A stretch of 64,000 bases of DNA from a virus. The DNA lies in UHGV virus genome UHGV-0171787; one strand, written 5' to 3'. Positions 3,323 through 55,105 of the stretch are shown in pieces (positions within the stretch are counted from its first letter, which is position 1; each line of letters opens with the position of its first letter). The translations under genes were made by a program, and so were the position numbers. The notes under the pieces were generated by a model that worked only from the letters and a program-made list of their open reading frames with translations, ran no database searches and had not been told where the DNA came from.

Positions 3323-4384
3323 ATGGCTAGTCCAACTTTATTTGTATCGTATGACCAGAATGGTAAAAAACTTTCTTTTGCTAACTGGATTTCTGTTCTG
3401 TCCCCTCAGGATACCCCGTTCGTATCTATGACCGGTAAAGAGTCTATCAACCAGACTATCTTTAGCTGGCAGACCGATGCACTGGCAAGCGTTGACGGTA
3501 ATAACGCACACGTCGAAGGCTCTCGTGCTGAAGACGGCGAAATGAAACCGACTGTTATCAAATCTAACGTTACTCAGATTCTGCGTAAGGTTGTTCGTGT
3601 TTCTGATACTGCTAACACCACCGCTAACTACGGTCGTGGTCGTGAACTGATGTATCAGCTGGAGAAGAAAGGTAAAGAGATCAAGCGTGACCTCGAGAAA
3701 ATCCTTCTGTCCGGTCAGGCTCGTACCGACGTTCTGGCTGACCAGTACCTGACTAACTCTGCAACTGATCCTGCTGTTGTTGGTCTGAATGACACCCATA
3801 CAGCTCGTAAGACTGGTGCATTCCAGTTCCTGTGTGCTCACGGTGGTCTGGCTGGTGGTGTTGTTGACAAGACCAAGAATGGTCCTGCTGACCCGGATAC
3901 TGGTGCAATCACTGTTAAAGTTGCACAGAATGCTTCTAACCCGACCACTAACATTGGTTTCGACGAAGCTGATATCTTTGATATGACTCTGCAACTGTAT
4001 ACCGCTGGTTCTGAAGCAGATATCATCATGATTAACCCGGCTCATGCTAAGATCTTCGCTGGTCTGCAAGAAAATACTCAGGGTTCACGTAAGCGTATCT
4101 TTGAGAACACCAAGCAGTTCATCTACGAAGTTAACAGCATCACTGACCCGCTGGGCCAGAGCTACAAAATCATCGTTAACCGTTGGATGCCTACCGATGC
4201 AGTTTACTTCTTCCGTAGCGCTGACTGGACTCAGATGGTTCTGCGTGCTCCGAAACGTACTGAACTGGCTAAAGATGGTTCTTATGAGAAATGGATGATT
4301 GAAATGGAAGTTGGTCTGCGTCACCGCAACCCGTATGCTTCCGGCGTTCTGTTCACTGCTGCGGGAAAGGTAGCGGCGGCGTAA
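3323..4384 (+). CDS. major capsid protein (zero-frame product)
   Basis: 353-aa ORF after the scaffold gene with a good RBS context (aggagctaatataacATG); canonical capsid position. Confidence 0.75.
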   Translation: MASPTLFVSYDQNGKKLSFANWISVLSPQDTPFVSMTGKESINQTIFSWQTDALASVDGNNAHVEGSRAEDGEMKPTVIKSNVTQILRKVVRVSDTANTTANYGRGRELMYQLEKKGKEIKRDLEKILLSGQARTDVLADQYLTNSATDPAVVGLNDTHTARKTGAFQFLCAHGGLAGGVVDKTKNGPADPDTGAITVKVAQNASNPTTNIGFDEADIFDMTLQLYTAGSEADIIMINPAHAKIFAGLQENTQGSRKRIFENTKQFIYEVNSITDPLGQSYKIIVNRWMPTDAVYFFRSADWTQMVLRAPKRTELAKDGSYEKWMIEMEVGLRHRNPYASGVLFTAAGKVAAA

Positions 4385-5487
4385 CAGTAGATTCCGTAAC
4401 TGTTAGTCCTTCGTCGGTTGCAAGCCTTCCGACGGGGGCTACTCAGCAGTTTACAGCTACAGCAGAAATGAGTGACGGCTCCACAAGCACAACTGGATTT
4501 AATTGGTCCGTTGAAGGCGGTGGGGCTATTTCTGTTTCTGGGCTATACACTGCACCGAGTGCGTCGCAAGAAACCCCAGCAATTATTACGGCAACGAAGT
4601 CATCCAAGAAAGGGACGGCTACTGTTAATTCTATCTACGAACCAGCGACTATTGTATCAAAAGGTCCTATTACTGGTAAGATTGGTGGCAGCACTACAGC
4701 ATTCACCACAATGTTTACAGCAACCAACTCAGCATTCTCTGATTATGAGTTTGAAATCACTCCTCCGTCAGCAGGTTCTTTTAACCTGTCGGGTGTATTT
4801 GGTTTAGATGACAATGCATCTGGAACAGTGACTGTAAAAGCAACGCATAAAACTCAAACCTCAGTTACTGCAACAGGGACAATCAGTGGTGTAATTCCTA
4901 AAGCTACTATCACAGGTAAGTCTCTTACCGGTAAGGTTGGTGGTGATGTGATTCCTTTTACTGACATGTTTACTAGTAACAAACCAGCATCGGAATTTAC
5001 TTACGCACTGACTCCTGATGGTGAAGTTGGTTCAATCAACACTACTACTGGTGCACTGACTTTAGCACTGGCTCCTACAGATGAACTTATGAGTGTTAAA
5101 GCAACCCATAAAACACAAACTTCTGTAACAGCTACTGCTACAATTACAGCAACACCGAAGTTGACAGGTCTTGTCCTTTCTTCTGTGACTAACACCACGG
5201 TTACTGGAAGCCCTGCGGTTCCGGCTGAATCTGATACAATTACTATCACTGATTCAGGTGTTGCAGGTGTTGCTCGTGTAGATGGGGTTCCTCAAGGAGC
5301 TTTAACTGGAGCTTTGGCCTATGATGTAGAAGGTACAGATTCTTCATTGATGACAGTGGATTTAACCAGCAATGTGTTAACTATCACCCTGTCAGCACCG
5401 ATTACCAGTGAAGATACAAAAATTACCATCCGAACTAATCCGGGTTCTGATGTTTTCCGTACTTATATTGTTAAATCTGGTGCATAA
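3323..5487 (+). CDS. capsid / Ig-like (Big_2-type) fusion protein made by -1 frameshift at 4363-4369
   Basis: The -1 frame reads ...GKGSGGVTVDSVTVSPSSVASLPTGATQQFTATAEMSDG... straight across the capsid stop. The Ig-domain sequence begins before the ATG at 4468, so the listed ORF 4468..5487 is a truncated view of this extension. Confidence 0.55.
4363..4369 (+). other. candidate -1 programmed ribosomal frameshift site (G GGA AAG)
   Basis: X XXY YYZ heptamer in the capsid frame, five codons before the capsid stop. The -1 frame is open from 4303 and encodes Big_2-like Ig domains through 5487. Inverted repeats follow at about 4382-4404 and 4414-4436. Confidence 0.6.
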
Positions 5488-5493
5488 GAATAA

Positions 5494-5524
5494 AGCCGCC
5501 TTCGGGTGGCTTTTCTTGTTTTAA
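5494..5524 (+). terminator. rho-independent terminator after the capsid/Ig gene
   Basis: AGCCGCC-UUCG-GGUGGCU hairpin followed by a T-run. Confidence 0.6.
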
Positions 5525-5586
5525 GACCTATACAAGTCAGTGTGTAATGTATATTCTTTGTCTACATATAACAAGGAGGACAACCT

Positions 5587-6339
5587 ATGGCAATGCCAGA
5601 TGTGGCCTATCCGATTAACACGTATGGCTGGCTTAAGAAAGCTGTTGCCTTGTGGGCCGATCGGGACGATGATGAATTTGTCAATCAAATTCCAAACTTT
5701 ATTAACTTTGCAGAGAAAGAGATCTATCGTAACTTACGTATTCCTCCTCTGGAAAAAGAAGTGTATTTAGATATCAAAGATGGAGTGGCTTATATTCCTC
5801 CTGATTACTTAGAAGCTCAATGGATGATGAGAGCCAAAGATGGTGCAATCTTCCAAGTAACATCTCCTGAAGAGATTAGCTATCGTAGACAGCATGGAAC
5901 AATTAATCCATCTCACTGGAATAACCAACCTGTTAACTTTGCTCGTTTCGGGAGTCGTTTCATTTTCTACCCTAGTATTGAAGCAGATACTCCATACTAC
6001 CCTGATGATGGAAGCCCTTTGATTCCAGCAGAAAACTCAGTAATTCTTAGTTATTATGCAGATCCACCGGAATTCCACGAAGATACAGATACCAGCGCTA
6101 TTCTTACTATAGCACCAGAACTTCTTCTGTATTTTACCCTACGTCATGCTTGTCTGTTTGTTCAAGATGATAACGGTGTTCAGAAATGGTCAGCATTAGG
6201 AAAAGCTATCCTTGATGAAATGGTAGAGCAGAACAAGAAACAAGAGTACTCAGGTTCACCTATCGCAATTCCGAATAACATGACTCGACTTCAGAGCAGC
6301 TTGCCTGATATTTATGGTATTCGCACTTCACGTGTATAA
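5587..6339 (+). CDS. virion structural protein (function unassigned)
   Basis: 250-aa ORF with an RBS (aaggagga) immediately downstream of the capsid module. Confidence 0.5.
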   Translation: MAMPDVAYPINTYGWLKKAVALWADRDDDEFVNQIPNFINFAEKEIYRNLRIPPLEKEVYLDIKDGVAYIPPDYLEAQWMMRAKDGAIFQVTSPEEISYRRQHGTINPSHWNNQPVNFARFGSRFIFYPSIEADTPYYPDDGSPLIPAENSVILSYYADPPEFHEDTDTSAILTIAPELLLYFTLRHACLFVQDDNGVQKWSALGKAILDEMVEQNKKQEYSGSPIAIPNNMTRLQSSLPDIYGIRTSRV

Positions 6340-37682: not shown

Positions 37683-38984
37683 TCACACTTCAAAAGAGAA
37701 ACCGCGACCCGATTCATCGGCAAACCGAACTGTACGGGTTTGAGGTTCTAATACTTCAGGGTTGTTGGCAACAAATCTATCAGCGAGGCTATCTCCTAAA
37801 TCCTCTATCACATCTTCATCAGTCCACACAGTCCTAACCGGTACATCAAAGTCACCAGCAACAAAACCCTGACCGGAGAATTGACGTGCGCTGACAGTAA
37901 AGTCATTTGACCGACCACGAGAAGAACCAGTCATCCACCGCTCTGTAGAACCGTTCGTAATACCAAGAGCCTCTTCAAAAGATGTTCTAGGATCGGGGCT
38001 TTCACTTCGTGACTCTTGTGCTCGACGCATTTCAGGGACTGCAAACACCCCTTCCATTGTGTTGTGATGATTAGTCTCATCTTCCCGACCAAGTAGATCT
38101 CCACTTGTATTGGTTGTTAAGTTTGTCAACCCTTCAGACCAATACGCACTAATCTGACTAGATCCATGAACACTTGACATTAACTGGATTTCTTCATAAG
38201 GGATTCCAAAGAATCGACTCATGTCACGATTAACACAATACTGAGCACTTGTTGTATCCTCAACAAGAGCAACCTGACCCCATTCATTGATCAGATGACT
38301 GACCGGTTGAGGTGTGGGAAGATATCGAGATTGTGCCATATATTGGTATGCAACAGATGGAGCGGAGAATCTTAATACCTGTGAATTAGGCCACTTCTTG
38401 TGAACATACTTGATTTCACGACCAGAAACAACTACTGGACAGGGGGAGGTCATAGCCAAATATCCATGAGGGGTCATGAATAGATTGTCAAGAGTAATCG
38501 CACCACGGCACATCATAGGAAAGCTGTCCAACACCTCTTCAATAGAAGTAGGATAGTTAAACATGAATTGGATACGAACCCCACTCCACTGGAACTCAAT
38601 AATATCGGTAAATGTTAACAGAGATCCTTCAGCGTAGGCTTCATTCGTAGCTTCAGCAAGAAGGGAAGAGTACTCAATATCTTGAGACTCGAGCCACTCT
38701 TTCACGTTACTTTCAACCTCTCGTCCGAGATCTTGCCACTGGTCATGGTGGATAAAGGTGTTTCGAGTTCTTGGGGCCTGTCCTCTGACAATAAAGATAT
38801 CAATGTCATGAGGTGCTCTGTTATTAAGAACAGCATCACGAACAGCCCCACCAGTGATGATGGGACAAATACAGTCTGGAATCAAGTTGTTGTTAATCAG
38901 CTGTTCAATGAAGTGACGACCAACAGCGATATCAGGTTGTTGAGCAACCTTATCTGCAATTCGGTTAATCGGGATAACAATCAT
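37683..38984 (-). CDS. nucleotidyltransferase (CCA-adding / poly(A) polymerase-type head domain) with an unassigned C-terminal domain
   Basis: GGAVRD followed by DIDIF matches the class II NTase signature; start taken at Met 20 of ORF 37683..39041 to abut the upstream stop. Confidence 0.5.
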   Translation of the reverse strand: MIVIPINRIADKVAQQPDIAVGRHFIEQLINNNLIPDCICPIITGGAVRDAVLNNRAPHDIDIFIVRGQAPRTRNTFIHHDQWQDLGREVESNVKEWLESQDIEYSSLLAEATNEAYAEGSLLTFTDIIEFQWSGVRIQFMFNYPTSIEEVLDSFPMMCRGAITLDNLFMTPHGYLAMTSPCPVVVSGREIKYVHKKWPNSQVLRFSAPSVAYQYMAQSRYLPTPQPVSHLINEWGQVALVEDTTSAQYCVNRDMSRFFGIPYEEIQLMSSVHGSSQISAYWSEGLTNLTTNTSGDLLGREDETNHHNTMEGVFAVPEMRRAQESRSESPDPRTSFEEALGITNGSTERWMTGSSRGRSNDFTVSARQFSGQGFVAGDFDVPVRTVWTDEDVIEDLGDSLADRFVANNPEVLEPQTRTVRFADESGRGFSFEV

Positions 38985-38985
38985 T

Positions 38986-39543
38986 TTACATTTTCCAATA
39001 TAATGAAGGTGGGTCGTAAGGGTCAAATCCTGTGAGTTCACACAAGTATTTATAAACCTTAACAGTTAAATTAACGTCCTGTTCACAATAAGTAAACATA
39101 TCCTCAGTGAAAGCATCCCATGCTTCCTCTTGCTCACCGTAATCACCTTTAAGTTCCCCTAAGAACTCACCCCATTGCTTCAAGCCATGACCTCTTGGGC
39201 CATGTCTAGGGTCGCCTTTCGGGTACTCAGGACTGTCACCAATACGGTCAGGTTTAAGATATCGACTAAGACATAAAGTGTCAAAGACGTTAAAACGATA
39301 GTTAATCAGATTGGGATACATCTTCTTCAGAGCACAAAGGTCGAAGTCAATAATATTGTGACCCACGAGCACATCTGCTTCTGTAAGTTTATGAATCCCA
39401 TCTTCAATTTGGTGAGGCCGATAGCCCCACCTTTCACCAGTTTCAACATCGAAAACATAAATACACCATACTTTGGTTATATCATCGTATAGTGCATTAC
39501 TCTCAATATCGAATGCAAACACTTTCTTCTTTTTCTTTACCAC
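38986..39543 (-). CDS. 3'-5' exonuclease (DnaQ/DEDD-like), encoded separately from the polymerase
   Basis: Exo I-like FAFDIES and a downstream Y..EQD motif; GTG start overlaps the helicase stop. Confidence 0.55.
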
Positions 39544-40079
39544 GGTGAAGCTCCATCTGCTTGGCTGACGAGAGAAGCTGCATCCTCTCCGTTAGTTAAA
39601 ACGAATGGATTATCTTCATCAACTTCAAAGTCTTCCCTTTCTACAAGTCTACCGGTTTCACTGATATACTTAGTATAACAGACACCTGTCTGACCGTAGT
39701 TACGTTCTTTCAGTAATCGAATGACTGAGAGGTTCTTAGCTAAGCCGTCAGCTTGCTTGTCACGCTCAAAGCCAATGATACACTGACACCAACGCATAAG
39801 AGAACGAGAGCCAGTGAACTGTACTTCACGTACCTGTCCACCTTCTTCATGAGGAGCACCACCTGCCGGAGCATTAAGGTGAGATAGCACGAAAGCGGTA
39901 AAGTCTAACTCTTTACACATACCAGCAAGCTCGGAAGCGATCTTACTGATTTCAGTGTTAATCTCTGAAGGTGTTAAATGAGATACCAGAGCGGTAATGT
40001 TATCAAGGATGATAAATTTACACTGGTTTTCAACTACCCAGAAACGAATACACTGTTTAATGTCTTCCCATTCGTTTTG
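39537..40079 (-). CDS. primase-helicase, exon 2 (helicase C-terminal part: Walker B and later motifs)
   Basis: [11 protein letters not shown] (Walker B / H2) and FVLSHLN; joins in frame to exon 1 after intron removal (...FLYDNFG|QNEWEDIK...). Confidence 0.7.
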
Positions 40080-40332
40080 CAATAATTCAATGAAGGACGC
40101 AACTCCTTCACCCGTAGCATTATATCTACTGCCCGTGGTTTCCCACGGGATTGGACTATATCATCACTCCTATTAAGGAGGCTAGGCGCTTCCACTAGCA
40201 TTAGCTTCTAGTGTACTCCTTTCGGATAGTCTCTGCACTTTCTAGGATGTATCCTAGCTTAGCTCAGGATTGGCATATCTTTCGACTTAGCTTTCCCTGA
40301 ATTCACCTAGTTTTACTTCGGCCATTGTGTTA
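40080..40332 (-). ncRNA. group I self-splicing intron (ORF-less, 253 nt) in the primase-helicase gene
   Basis: Intron RNA starts with UAA after an exon-terminal U and ends in G. P1: exon CUUCGGU pairs with intron GCCGAAG with U-G at the splice site. Conserved R element GUGCAGAGACUA (plus 40227-40238) and S element GAUAUAGUCC (plus 40153-40162). Confidence 0.75.
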
Positions 40333-53878: not shown

Positions 53879-54172
53879 ATACCCTCCAATTAAACATTTA
53901 TATAAGACTTGCTTAGATAAAGATTCAATAAATAGGGGGAGGGGACGAATCCTCCCTTATCCTATTAGTTACTATTGCATGTAAGATCTAACAATCGGTT
54001 GCCTTTGTAGGAATAAGCGTTATGCTAATCCAGCACTAAACTCCCGCCCCCTTAGTGGGCTGGGTTATTAAAGGGTAACGCCCTTATGGGCTAGTTACAT
54101 GAATGTTAGTTTGATAGGAGATCTGAAGTCCTATCTCAAAGGACTCTCGTAAGAATCCTTCACGATAAGTTC

Positions 54173-54370
54173 TTAATACACTAAGCCGTGTAAAAGAAAC
54201 ACCCTCTTTGTAAGCTCTGCTTTAGCTCTGTAATAAGCCCTAGAACCTAACAGACGGCTCTTAACAAAGAACTTAATGTCATTGCTAACATCTTGTATTA
54301 AACGCTCCTGTACAGCTTCTGAGGAGCTATTAATCGAATCAATTAACACCTTTGTAGATGTGTAATTCAT
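54173..54370 (-). CDS. hypothetical small protein
   Basis: 65-aa ORF. Confidence 0.35.
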   Translation of the reverse strand: MNYTSTKVLIDSINSSSEAVQERLIQDVSNDIKFFVKSRLLGSRAYYRAKAELTKRVFLLHGLVY

Positions 54371-54469
54371 GTCACTACTCCCTACTAATTACAGCCTGTA
54401 AGGGCCACACAGACGATGAAGATACAGATTAAGGATATTACACCACCCCAACTCATAACACACCTCATT

Positions 54470-54985
54470 CTATTTAGTTAACCAAAAACCTTTCGGCTTT
54501 TTAACAACACCAAGAATCCTACATCTCTTATGGACAGCCGAATCACTAACACTCAGTAACCTCCCTACTACGTACACGGGGTAAATGTCTATTAAAGACT
54601 GAAGAGATTCTTTTGTTATTTCAAACCGTCTGCTATCTAATTTGGCACAAAGCTGTGAGCAAAACCTTTGGTTGCTATTCTCTGAAACAAGGTAAATCTC
54701 TCCACAAAAAGAACATAATCTTTCTTCCATAACAGCCCCATGATGATGCCTGCTATGCTCCTCATAAGTCATGATTTCTAAATTAGATGGTTCGTTGTTT
54801 AACTTATTCTCATCCTTGTGATGAACCACTAGGTCAGAGTTCAGTTCGACACCGTAGAAATTTTGAGCAACATACCTATGAACATACACCTTTCCAGCTT
54901 TATTGGCCATAGGGTGTGTTGGTTGGTACACATACAAATAACCAACACCTTTATCAACAACTGCTTTACTTAGATCTAGCTTCAT
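54470..54985 (-). CDS. HNH homing-endonuclease-like protein
   Basis: VVHHKDENKLNNEPSNLEIMTYEEH is HNH_3-like; a Cys-pair region follows. Confidence 0.65.
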   Translation of the reverse strand: MKLDLSKAVVDKGVGYLYVYQPTHPMANKAGKVYVHRYVAQNFYGVELNSDLVVHHKDENKLNNEPSNLEIMTYEEHSRHHHGAVMEERLCSFCGEIYLVSENSNQRFCSQLCAKLDSRRFEITKESLQSLIDIYPVYVVGRLLSVSDSAVHKRCRILGVVKKPKGFWLTK

Positions 54986-55005
54986 AATACCTCAAGAACT
55001 CTTAG

Positions 55006-55084
55006 CGAGGGTGACAGGACTCGAACCTGCATACTCCATTTACTTCTTTAACGACCACTTAGAAGGCGGGGAAGATACACCCTC
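55006..55084 (-). tRNA. tRNA-like element (non-canonical; could not be folded into a standard cloverleaf by hand)
   Basis: Minus strand has a 7-bp acceptor-like pairing GAGGGUG/CACCCUC and a T-arm GCAGG-UUCGAGU-CCUGU; 79 nt before the discriminator; a CUUCUAA loop would fit anticodon UCU but D-arm pairing is not evident. Confidence 0.3.
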
Positions 55085-55105
55085 ACTAAGAGCTCTCGTT
55101 AATCC

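Follow-up and report, generated by a model that had tools for sequence, protein, structure and literature searches.

We analyzed a 64-kb window of viral DNA (UHGV virus genome UHGV-0171787, 64,000 nt in all) and found it collinear with positions 4128 to 77506 of Escherichia phage phiEco32 (Kuravirus, Gordonclarkvirinae). The gene for the primase-helicase is interrupted in this window by 253 nt (40080-40332), and we conclude with high confidence that these 253 nt are a genuine group I intron, of the subgroup-IA type, located in the gene for a T7-gp4-like primase-helicase of a phiEco32-like coliphage (Kuravirus). Splicing of the intron is predicted from the DNA sequence. The genes around the intron lie on the minus strand, and over 7251 bp around it the window is 100% identical to an ENA metagenome contig of 68 kb (ERZ27289133 k119_152547). 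The gene is laid out as follows.

40333-41580, minus strand: exon 1 (amino acids 1-416), with the zinc-finger cysteines, the Toprim region, and the Walker A motif of the helicase; it ends ...FLYDNFG, and its last base is U 40333

40080-40332, minus strand: group I intron of 253 nt with no endonuclease open reading frame (ORF); it matches Rfam RF00028, and exactly these bases are missing in 68 relatives

39537-40079, minus strand: exon 2 (amino acids 417-596), beginning QNEWEDIK..., with the Walker B motif and the remaining helicase motifs

Without splicing, the gene appears as two ORFs. The upstream ORF (40330-41580, minus strand, 416 amino acids) ends with ...FLYDNFG and then TAA; this stop codon (40332-40330) is formed by the three opening bases of the insert, and U 40333 just before it is the last base of the exon. 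The insert therefore opens with UAA, an in-frame stop for exon 1, and it closes with a terminal G (omega-G) at 40080. The downstream ORF (39537-40082, 181 amino acids) begins at a TTG (40082-40080) and reads MQNEWEDIK..., and directly after the insert the frame reads CAA AAC GAA TGG (QNEW...). A first-pass annotation, made from the letters of the window, had placed a 253-nt insert at 40332-40080, with UAA after an exon-terminal U and a G at the end, and we confirmed this on the minus strand.

If 40333 is joined to 40079, the result is a 596-amino-acid protein that is identical to phiEco32 gp75 at 594 of 596 positions with no gaps (exon 1 is 100% collinear with gp75). The in-frame joining of ...FLYDNFG to QNEWEDIK..., as first proposed, is thus borne out, and so is the proposal that the gene is split between Walker A and Walker B: in the spliced protein, Walker A (GGGVGSGKT) is at amino acids 335-343, the junction follows G416, and Walker B (FIILDN) is at amino acids 438-443. 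The spliced protein is similar to the structures of the T7 gp4 primase-helicase (5ikn, 6n7i, and 1q57; E values of 1e-31 to 1e-32) over amino acids 117-571, and this alignment crosses the junction unbroken (LYDNFG/QNEWEDI versus LYDSFAEAETDRL in T7). The Pfam family DnaB_C scores 41.9 bits on the spliced protein (the cut-off is 27) and 21.3 bits on exon 2 alone, and exon 1 alone had no match when searched for this family. Because the T7 gp4 alignment and DnaB_C both run across the junction and neither half reaches the cut-off, the two ORFs are halves of one domain and not two genes. Exon 1 also has a weak match to Toprim_2. Overall, a Toprim primase region and a DnaB-family helicase domain with both Walker motifs are found in one spliced polypeptide, as in T7 gp4.

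The comparison with intron-less relatives, which the first-pass annotation had proposed as a check, gave a contiguous gene rather than two separate genes. Aligned with about 70 Kuravirus and Shigella phage records, the 2044-nt gene region of the window falls into two pieces, which together span exactly 1791 bp of the record (2044 minus 253), and with an 80-nt probe over the intron-less junction we found the contiguous junction in 68 INPHARED records. These intron-less alleles read GGA/CAG at the junction and the window reads GGU/CAA; both changes are silent, and the window's spliced junction has no exact match among the 68 intron-less INPHARED records.

Predicted fold of the ribozyme

The covariance-model search that had been suggested as a further check was also positive. 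Rfam model RF00028 (Intron_gpI) matches 40342-40132 on the minus strand with 86.3 bits (the gathering score is 50; E = 1.4e-20) and over model positions 1-253, and this is the sole Rfam match in the window. A covariance model that was built from the window copy and its closest relative also has a single match in the window. The predicted folding is more stable than expected by chance (z = -5.3), and none of 200 shuffled sequences was as stable. The full secondary structure can be written out with all standard pairs, and it comprises P1, P3, P4, P5/P5a, P6/P6a, P7, P7.1, P7.2, P8, P9, P9.1, and P9.2; P7 is pseudoknotted with P3 and has a bulged A. The predicted elements are listed here in the order of the transcript.

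40315-40340, minus strand: P1 hairpin, in which exon ACUUCGGU and intron UA pair with the internal guide sequence UGGCCGAAGU

40237-40300, minus strand: P4-P5-P6 domain, with P4 (40295-40300/40264-40269), P5/P5a with a GAAA loop (40273-40291), and P6/P6a (40237-40263)

40242-40257, minus strand: P6a hairpin, CUAGGA-UACA-UCCUAG, where relatives have a loop of about 500 nt with an HNH ORF

40227-40238, minus strand: R element GUGCAGAGACUA, which is J6/7 and the 5' strand of P7, with the bulged A

40193-40226, minus strand: P7.1 (40217-40226, GAAA loop) and P7.2 (40193-40213), peripheral helices between P7 and the 3' strand of P3 (P3')

40182-40188, minus strand: 3' strand of P3, CGCCUAG, whose partner is 40304-40310 (CUAGGUG)

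40153-40180, minus strand: hairpin of P8 (40167-40180), then J8/7 and, as the 3' strand of P7, the S element GAUAUAGUCC (40153-40162)

40092-40149, minus strand: P9 (40132-40149, GAAA loop), P9.1 (40114-40129), and P9.2 (40092-40109)

In P1, exon CUUCGGU (40339-40333) pairs with intron GCCGAAG (40322-40316), and a wobble pair is formed at the splice site (U40333.G40322). This pairing had been described correctly, and the helix is three pairs longer than that description: exon ACUUCGGU pairs with GCCGAAGU. The core elements R and S, whose presence had also been claimed, are located at 40238-40227 and 40162-40153, and they pair together as P7. We compared 12 intron copies at the same site (the window, the ENA contig, Escherichia phage VTCCBPA_211, and nine other contigs). 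All 12 have a U at position -1, as the U.G pair requires, and the intron-less alleles that we read (phiEco32, SU10, and relative L033) have an A. The 3' end of the intron (...AUUGAAUUAUUG/CA) is also kept in all 12 copies.

Subgroup IA, to which the T4 and SPO1 introns belong, is marked by the presence of P7.1 and P7.2 in the interval from P7 to P3'. On the modeled structure, the intron is of the subgroup-IA type. It has no P2, it has P9.1 and P9.2, and there is a bulged A in P7; a choice of IA2 over IA1 or IA3 is a matter of architecture only.

Searched at the DNA level, the intron has relatives in many unrelated phages, located in the genes of the major head protein, the ribonucleotide reductase, the DNA polymerase, the large terminase, and the tape measure protein. 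Most of these related phage introns score 75-114 bits with Rfam. We aligned 15 full-length related introns to the two-sequence covariance model described above. In this alignment, 93.8% of the cells are in standard pairs, versus 31-42% if the 3' partners are slid by 1-3 columns. Changes on both sides were seen in 57 of the 75 pairs, and none of 500 shuffles reached any of the observed measures. The columns of P1 have both-side changes in all 10 pairs. The paired fraction is 97% in P3 (with both-side changes in 5 of 7 pairs), 100% in P4, 100% in P7, and 93% in P8. Pairing in P5a is 100%, with both-side changes, and P7.1 and P7.2 are 100% and 95% paired with both-side changes in every pair. Finally, P9, P9.1, and P9.2 are 99%, 96%, and 90% paired.

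The copies at the same site (253 versus 739 nt) were compared with an ORF-trimmed alignment and with a covariance-model alignment. Among the 12 copies, nearly all changes within helices keep the pairing. For example, A-U is replaced by G-C and G-C by U-A in P7.2, there are wobble changes in P9, G-C is replaced by A-U in P9.2, and one pair of P8 is removed on both strands. That the pairing is kept argues that the RNA structure is under selection.

Relatives of the intron and the origin of the ORF-less form

The only INPHARED record with an intron at this site is that of Escherichia phage VTCCBPA_211 (L001, PP989838.1, 1501-4030). Its intron is 739 nt long and has a 176-amino-acid ORF with matches to NUMOD4, HNH_3, and helix-turn-helix domains. 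In GenBank, exon 1 of this phage is called a "DNA directed DNA polymerase" and exon 2 a "helicase," the endonuclease is listed as a "hypothetical protein," and the intron is unannotated. An exact-sequence look-up of the 416-amino-acid exon-1 ORF gave 17 contigs. We read ten contigs, and nine of them have an intron of 739-741 nt with an HNH ORF of 168 or 176 amino acids. The tenth (ENA ERZ27289133 k119_152547) has the identical 253-nt ORF-less intron, and the look-up reports four further similar places with the same arrangement. Exact intron strings were not found in IMG/VR or in the GTDB genome collection, and in JGI metagenomes they were found in only two contigs, both of which were already known from the other searches; all of these collections are poor in Kuraviruses.

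The endonuclease ORF sits in the loop of P6a, which is closed by a CCCUUCUCC/GGAGAAGGG stem, and it continues through P7, P7.1, and P7.2. The endonuclease-bearing copies part from the window after 40257 and rejoin it at 40242. Their HNH enzyme is about 35% identical to HNH proteins of the DNA polymerase introns of the SPO1/SP82 group. Judging from these comparisons, the window intron is a variant of a mobile intron that has an I-HmuI-like NUMOD4/HNH_3 endonuclease in P6a in sister phages. As the first-pass annotation had stated, there is no homing endonuclease within the 253 nt of the window copy (the longest ORF has 40 codons and no family match), and because it has no endonuclease gene, this copy presumably cannot home by itself. 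The endonuclease-bearing copies score only 31-33 bits with Rfam, which is below the gathering threshold. Since the large insert in P6a lowers the scores, screens with Rfam under-count this intron.

Three relatives (L018, L023, and L033) have a second group I intron in the same gene. It lies 288 nt downstream, between window positions 39792 and 39791 and after codon R512, and this site is empty in the window. The L018 copy of it (5276-5895) measures 620 nt and has a 111-amino-acid HNH_3 ORF in its own P6a, a P1 of AUGCGU/GCGCAU, and a terminal G; it scores 41.7 bits with Rfam, below the gathering score. The P4-P6 domain of the second intron is almost identical to that of the first. In particular, the P6 flanks in the window (GAGCUAAGCUAG...UAGAAAGUGCAG) equal the second-intron flanks in L018 and L033. 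The second-intron flanks (GAGCUAAGCUAG...UAGAAAGUGCAGAGACUA) are those of the window, and the endonuclease-bearing copies of the first intron differ there. Furthermore, the second intron of L033 (6698-7291) is a mosaic: its P7/P7.1 segment (ACUAUCCGAAAGGAGUA) is of the first-intron type, and L018 has ACUAGGGUGGUCAUAAGACC... instead. This mosaic indicates that segments have been exchanged between the introns at the two sites.

Outside of P6a, the window intron is nearly the same as in the lineage with the 176-amino-acid endonuclease (L020 and L026): the 5' 71 nt are 100% identical and the 3' 159 nt are 98.7% identical. Over the same 3' 159 nt, the window intron is about 90-92% identical to the other endonuclease-bearing lineages. 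Because the window intron nests among endonuclease-bearing copies, loss of the endonuclease is favored. We rejected an origin by simple deletion: the hairpin CUAGGAUACAUCCUAG and its 6-mers (except for one chance occurrence of GGATAC) are absent from the endonuclease-bearing introns. On balance, the sequence comparisons lead us to favor, by a modest degree, that the ORF-less state arose when the endonuclease-bearing P6a was replaced through recombination or gene conversion with a related intron.

It is also quite possible, though we would not bet on it, that the ORF-less intron is the ancestral empty form and that different HNH genes later entered P6a here and at the second site. This would account for the P6 flanks that the window shares with the second intron, whose endonuclease lies in a CUAG...UAG frame, and for a hairpin that no simple deletion in the endonuclease-bearing form would produce. 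However, outside of P6a the window intron is near-identical to a single endonuclease-bearing lineage (L020/L026) and farther from the others, so that it nests within endonuclease-bearing copies, and L033 gives direct evidence that the two introns recombine.

A relic frame is found in the window at 40182-40238 (minus strand): it reads VQRLSERSTLEANASGSA and then stops, and except for its first residue, it matches the C-terminus of the 176-amino-acid enzyme of L020. The frame persists because the endonuclease ORF of L020 overlaps P7, P7.1, P7.2, and P3', and the first residue differs because it would be inside the P6 segment that was replaced.

A group-I-like element is also present in phage O18-011 (L032, NC_070985.1, 2056-2890), with 31 bits from Rfam and a 164-amino-acid HNH ORF. 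It comes after the stop codon of an intact primase-helicase gene and before the polymerase-exonuclease gene, and its 3' end has a copy of about 45 nt of the exon sequence that is normally just upstream of the second intron site (...GGTACGTGAGGTACAGTTCACTGGCTCTCGTTCTCTTA).

Splicing and homing

If the intron splices as other group I introns do, then the pre-mRNA would fold into the P1-P9.2 structure, and a free guanosine bound in P7 would attack the phosphate after exon U 40333, which would be held in the U.G wobble of P1. The terminal G (40080) would then occupy the G-binding site, and the freed 3'-OH of exon 1 would attack after G 40080 and join GGU to CAA. The spliced mRNA would encode a single 596-amino-acid primase-helicase. 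On unspliced RNA, the UAA at the start of the intron would stop ribosomes. In T4 introns, a stop at the intron start protects the folding of the ribozyme, and by analogy, the leading UAA may have a protective role here.

The intron might also serve the phage as an expression valve, in which the efficiency of splicing sets the ratio of primase-only to full-length protein, and give immunity to the HNH enzymes of sister phages at the occupied site; we consider this unlikely. As a valve, it would leave some mRNA unspliced, which would yield a 416-amino-acid protein with a complete zinc-finger and Toprim primase and a truncated ATPase, a loose parallel to the two gene-4 products of T7. As for immunity, the site would be occupied without the cost of an endonuclease gene, and the phage would be protected from the HNH enzymes of co-infecting sister phages.

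Free-standing HNH genes do lie elsewhere in the window, as the first reading had noted (at 42209-42757 and 54470-54985, both on the minus strand). The first of these encodes a 177-amino-acid protein with NUMOD4 and HNH_3 domains and lies in a 594-bp insertion relative to phiEco32 (42206-42799), where it overlaps the start of, and is just upstream of, the gene for gamma-glutamyl cyclotransferase. At the DNA level, no INPHARED record carries this gene, and it is present in eight contigs of a larger collection, including L033. Its protein is 36-38% identical to the intron enzyme. The other gene encodes a 171-amino-acid HNH_3 protein in a 931-bp segment (54168-55098) that is unmatched in phiEco32, and it is probably a further free-standing homing endonuclease.

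In collaborative homing, an ORF-less intron is combined with a free-standing endonuclease that is aimed at the insertion site of the intron (PMC3984707). We considered whether the ORF-less intron and the HNH gene at 42209-42757 could be such a pair, with the enzyme cutting intron-less alleles in trans. The arrangement is alike in that both are in one replication-gene cluster; the intron and the HNH gene are each missing from about 70-100 INPHARED Kuravirus records and occur together in the window and the ENA contig; the free-standing and intron-encoded enzymes are of the same family (36% identity says nothing on target specificity, however); and there are precedents in T3/phiI-like phages and cyanophages (PMC3984707). 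But L033 has exactly the same 177-amino-acid HNH protein beside an empty, ordinary first-intron site (UUUGGA/CAGAAC), so cleavage there would break the enzyme's own genome. Also, unlike the known pairs, which are adjacent, the HNH gene here is 1.9 kb away from the insertion site and separated from it by exon 1 and two genes. Because of the empty site in L033 and the distance, we give collaborative homing a low weight: the functional link is unsupported, and we regard it as highly doubtful.

Other homing-type genes are found nearby in relatives. In L020, an ORF of the Endonuclease_7 family (5526-5969, 147 amino acids) lies between the primase-helicase and polymerase-exonuclease genes; the equivalent in the window is the junction near 39528-39536. 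In L024, a different HNH_3 gene (173 amino acids) lies between the cyclotransferase and primase-helicase genes. The replication module of Kuraviruses looks like a hot spot for homing endonuclease genes.

Downstream of the primase-helicase gene, the 3'-5' exonuclease domain of the DNA polymerase is encoded by a separate gene of 185 amino acids (38986-39543, minus strand), as in phiEco32. Within 37683-39543 (minus strand), this exonuclease gene is followed by a nucleotidyltransferase-like gene of about 450 amino acids with a weak match to the PolyA_pol head domain. The polymerase domain itself is encoded about 7 kb away. We take this split of the exonuclease and polymerase genes to be a known feature of phiEco32 that has no relation to the intron.

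Weighing the evidence and comparison with known systems

Several observations weigh against a genuine, spliced intron of this type. P2 is absent, which is unusual for a textbook IA2 fold, although the Rfam model tolerates this and several relatives also have no P2. P10 is weak, with just 2 bp (C-G and A-U) between the first two bases of exon 2 and the UG just 5' of the guide sequence. P9.0 (AA/UU, 2 bp) is possible but unsupported in the cross-phage alignment, where the 3' ends are not aligned comparably. The alignment of 15 introns was fitted to a model from the window's own sequence, so its pairing is somewhat inflated; the controls with slid columns answer this in part. And, as to the direction of gain or loss, a simple deletion of the endonuclease does not explain the P6a hairpin.

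Could the intron instead be a decayed relic that no longer splices, leaving the primase-helicase broken or functioning as two fragments? In favor of this, the match of the window is to a metagenome contig and not to a cultured isolate, P10 is weak, and the lack of an endonuclease fits a late stage of the homing cycle. Nevertheless, we consider a dead relic to be very improbable. Every core helix is intact, and the changes relative to the sister copies keep the pairing. R, S, and J8/7 are identical to those of the endonuclease-bearing copies at the same site, and P7 remains paired in each of the 15 related introns. Full purifying selection acts on the exons (594/596 identity to phiEco32 gp75), the four further similar places were reported with the same arrangement, and a primase-helicase gene is essential in T7-like replication systems. 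The weakest explanation is that there are two naturally separate genes (a primase with half of the ATPase, and the C-terminal half of the helicase) with a structured spacer, no splicing, and association of the halves as proteins: gene callers and the GenBank record of VTCCBPA_211 do give separate coding sequences, and the TTG at 40082-40080 permits the 181-amino-acid call, but we find this extremely hard to credit. The split cuts a single RecA-like fold between its Walker A and Walker B motifs, and in about 70 close relatives the gene is continuous. The supposed spacer scores highly as a group I ribozyme and has its U.G splice site and terminal G exactly at the boundaries, and the only Shine-Dalgarno-like sequence (GAAGGAG, 23-29 nt upstream of the TTG) is buried in P9.2.

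Group I introns in the DNA-metabolism genes of phages are classic: examples are T4 td, nrdB, and nrdD, the DNA polymerases of SPO1 and T7-like phages, and the multi-intron genes of Twort. The introns of T4 (td, nrdB, nrdD) and SPO1/SP82 (I-HmuI/I-HmuII) resemble the Kuravirus intron in having a group I core with P7.1, P7.2, and extended P9.1 and P9.2, in interrupting the conserved motif region of a DNA-metabolism gene, and in having a stop codon at or near the intron start. Also, the sister copies of the window intron loop an HNH-type endonuclease ORF out of P6a, as in those systems. Here, in contrast, the host gene encodes a primase-helicase, the lineage is Kuravirus, P2 is absent, the window copy is ORF-less, and splicing is predicted.

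The introns in the DNA polymerase genes of T7-like and related podophages (phiI/W31, Vi06, LUZ24, Pf-WMP3, and BASEL phages Bas89 and Bas93), which include both ORF-less and HNH-bearing forms, are of the same ribozyme family. Over the P7-P3' core, the introns of Bas93/Bas94 and Vi06 are 80-82% identical to the window intron, and over P1-P5, the introns of Bas89, KBNP1711, and LAMP are 86% identical. They differ in that the gene is DNA polymerase there and primase-helicase here. Several of the podophage DNA polymerase records annotate the intron with a joined coding sequence, but no record that we examined annotates a primase-helicase intron.

Introns are also reported from helicase genes of the Twort-like Staphylococcus myophages Romulus and Remus (as cited in PMC5526547). 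As described there, they are alike in being introns of the self-splicing type in a replicative helicase-type gene of a phage; the phage family and the host are unrelated, and the likeness is one of description only. ORF-less introns and the homing cycle have been reviewed (PMC3984707). A literature search found no report of an intron in Kuravirus or phiEco32 or of a group I intron in a primase-helicase gene; its coverage was incomplete, so this is weak evidence.

Overall, the intron is an ordinary, well-supported example of a well-known kind of mobile element; it involves no new mechanism, and the understanding of how group I introns work is unchanged by it. Its relevance is to the phages. PhiEco32-like phages are isolated in large numbers for phage therapy, and recognizing the intron restores an essential replication gene in their annotation: the public records of related phages are without the intron or, for VTCCBPA_211, have exons that are labeled as unrelated genes. 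The replication module of Kuraviruses holds a small family of related group I introns, at no fewer than two sites in the primase-helicase gene, and a related intron-like element just downstream. The family has endonuclease-bearing and endonuclease-free forms with visible exchange of segments, and it is a natural data set for the homing cycle (invasion, endonuclease loss, and recombination) in coliphages that are easily grown.

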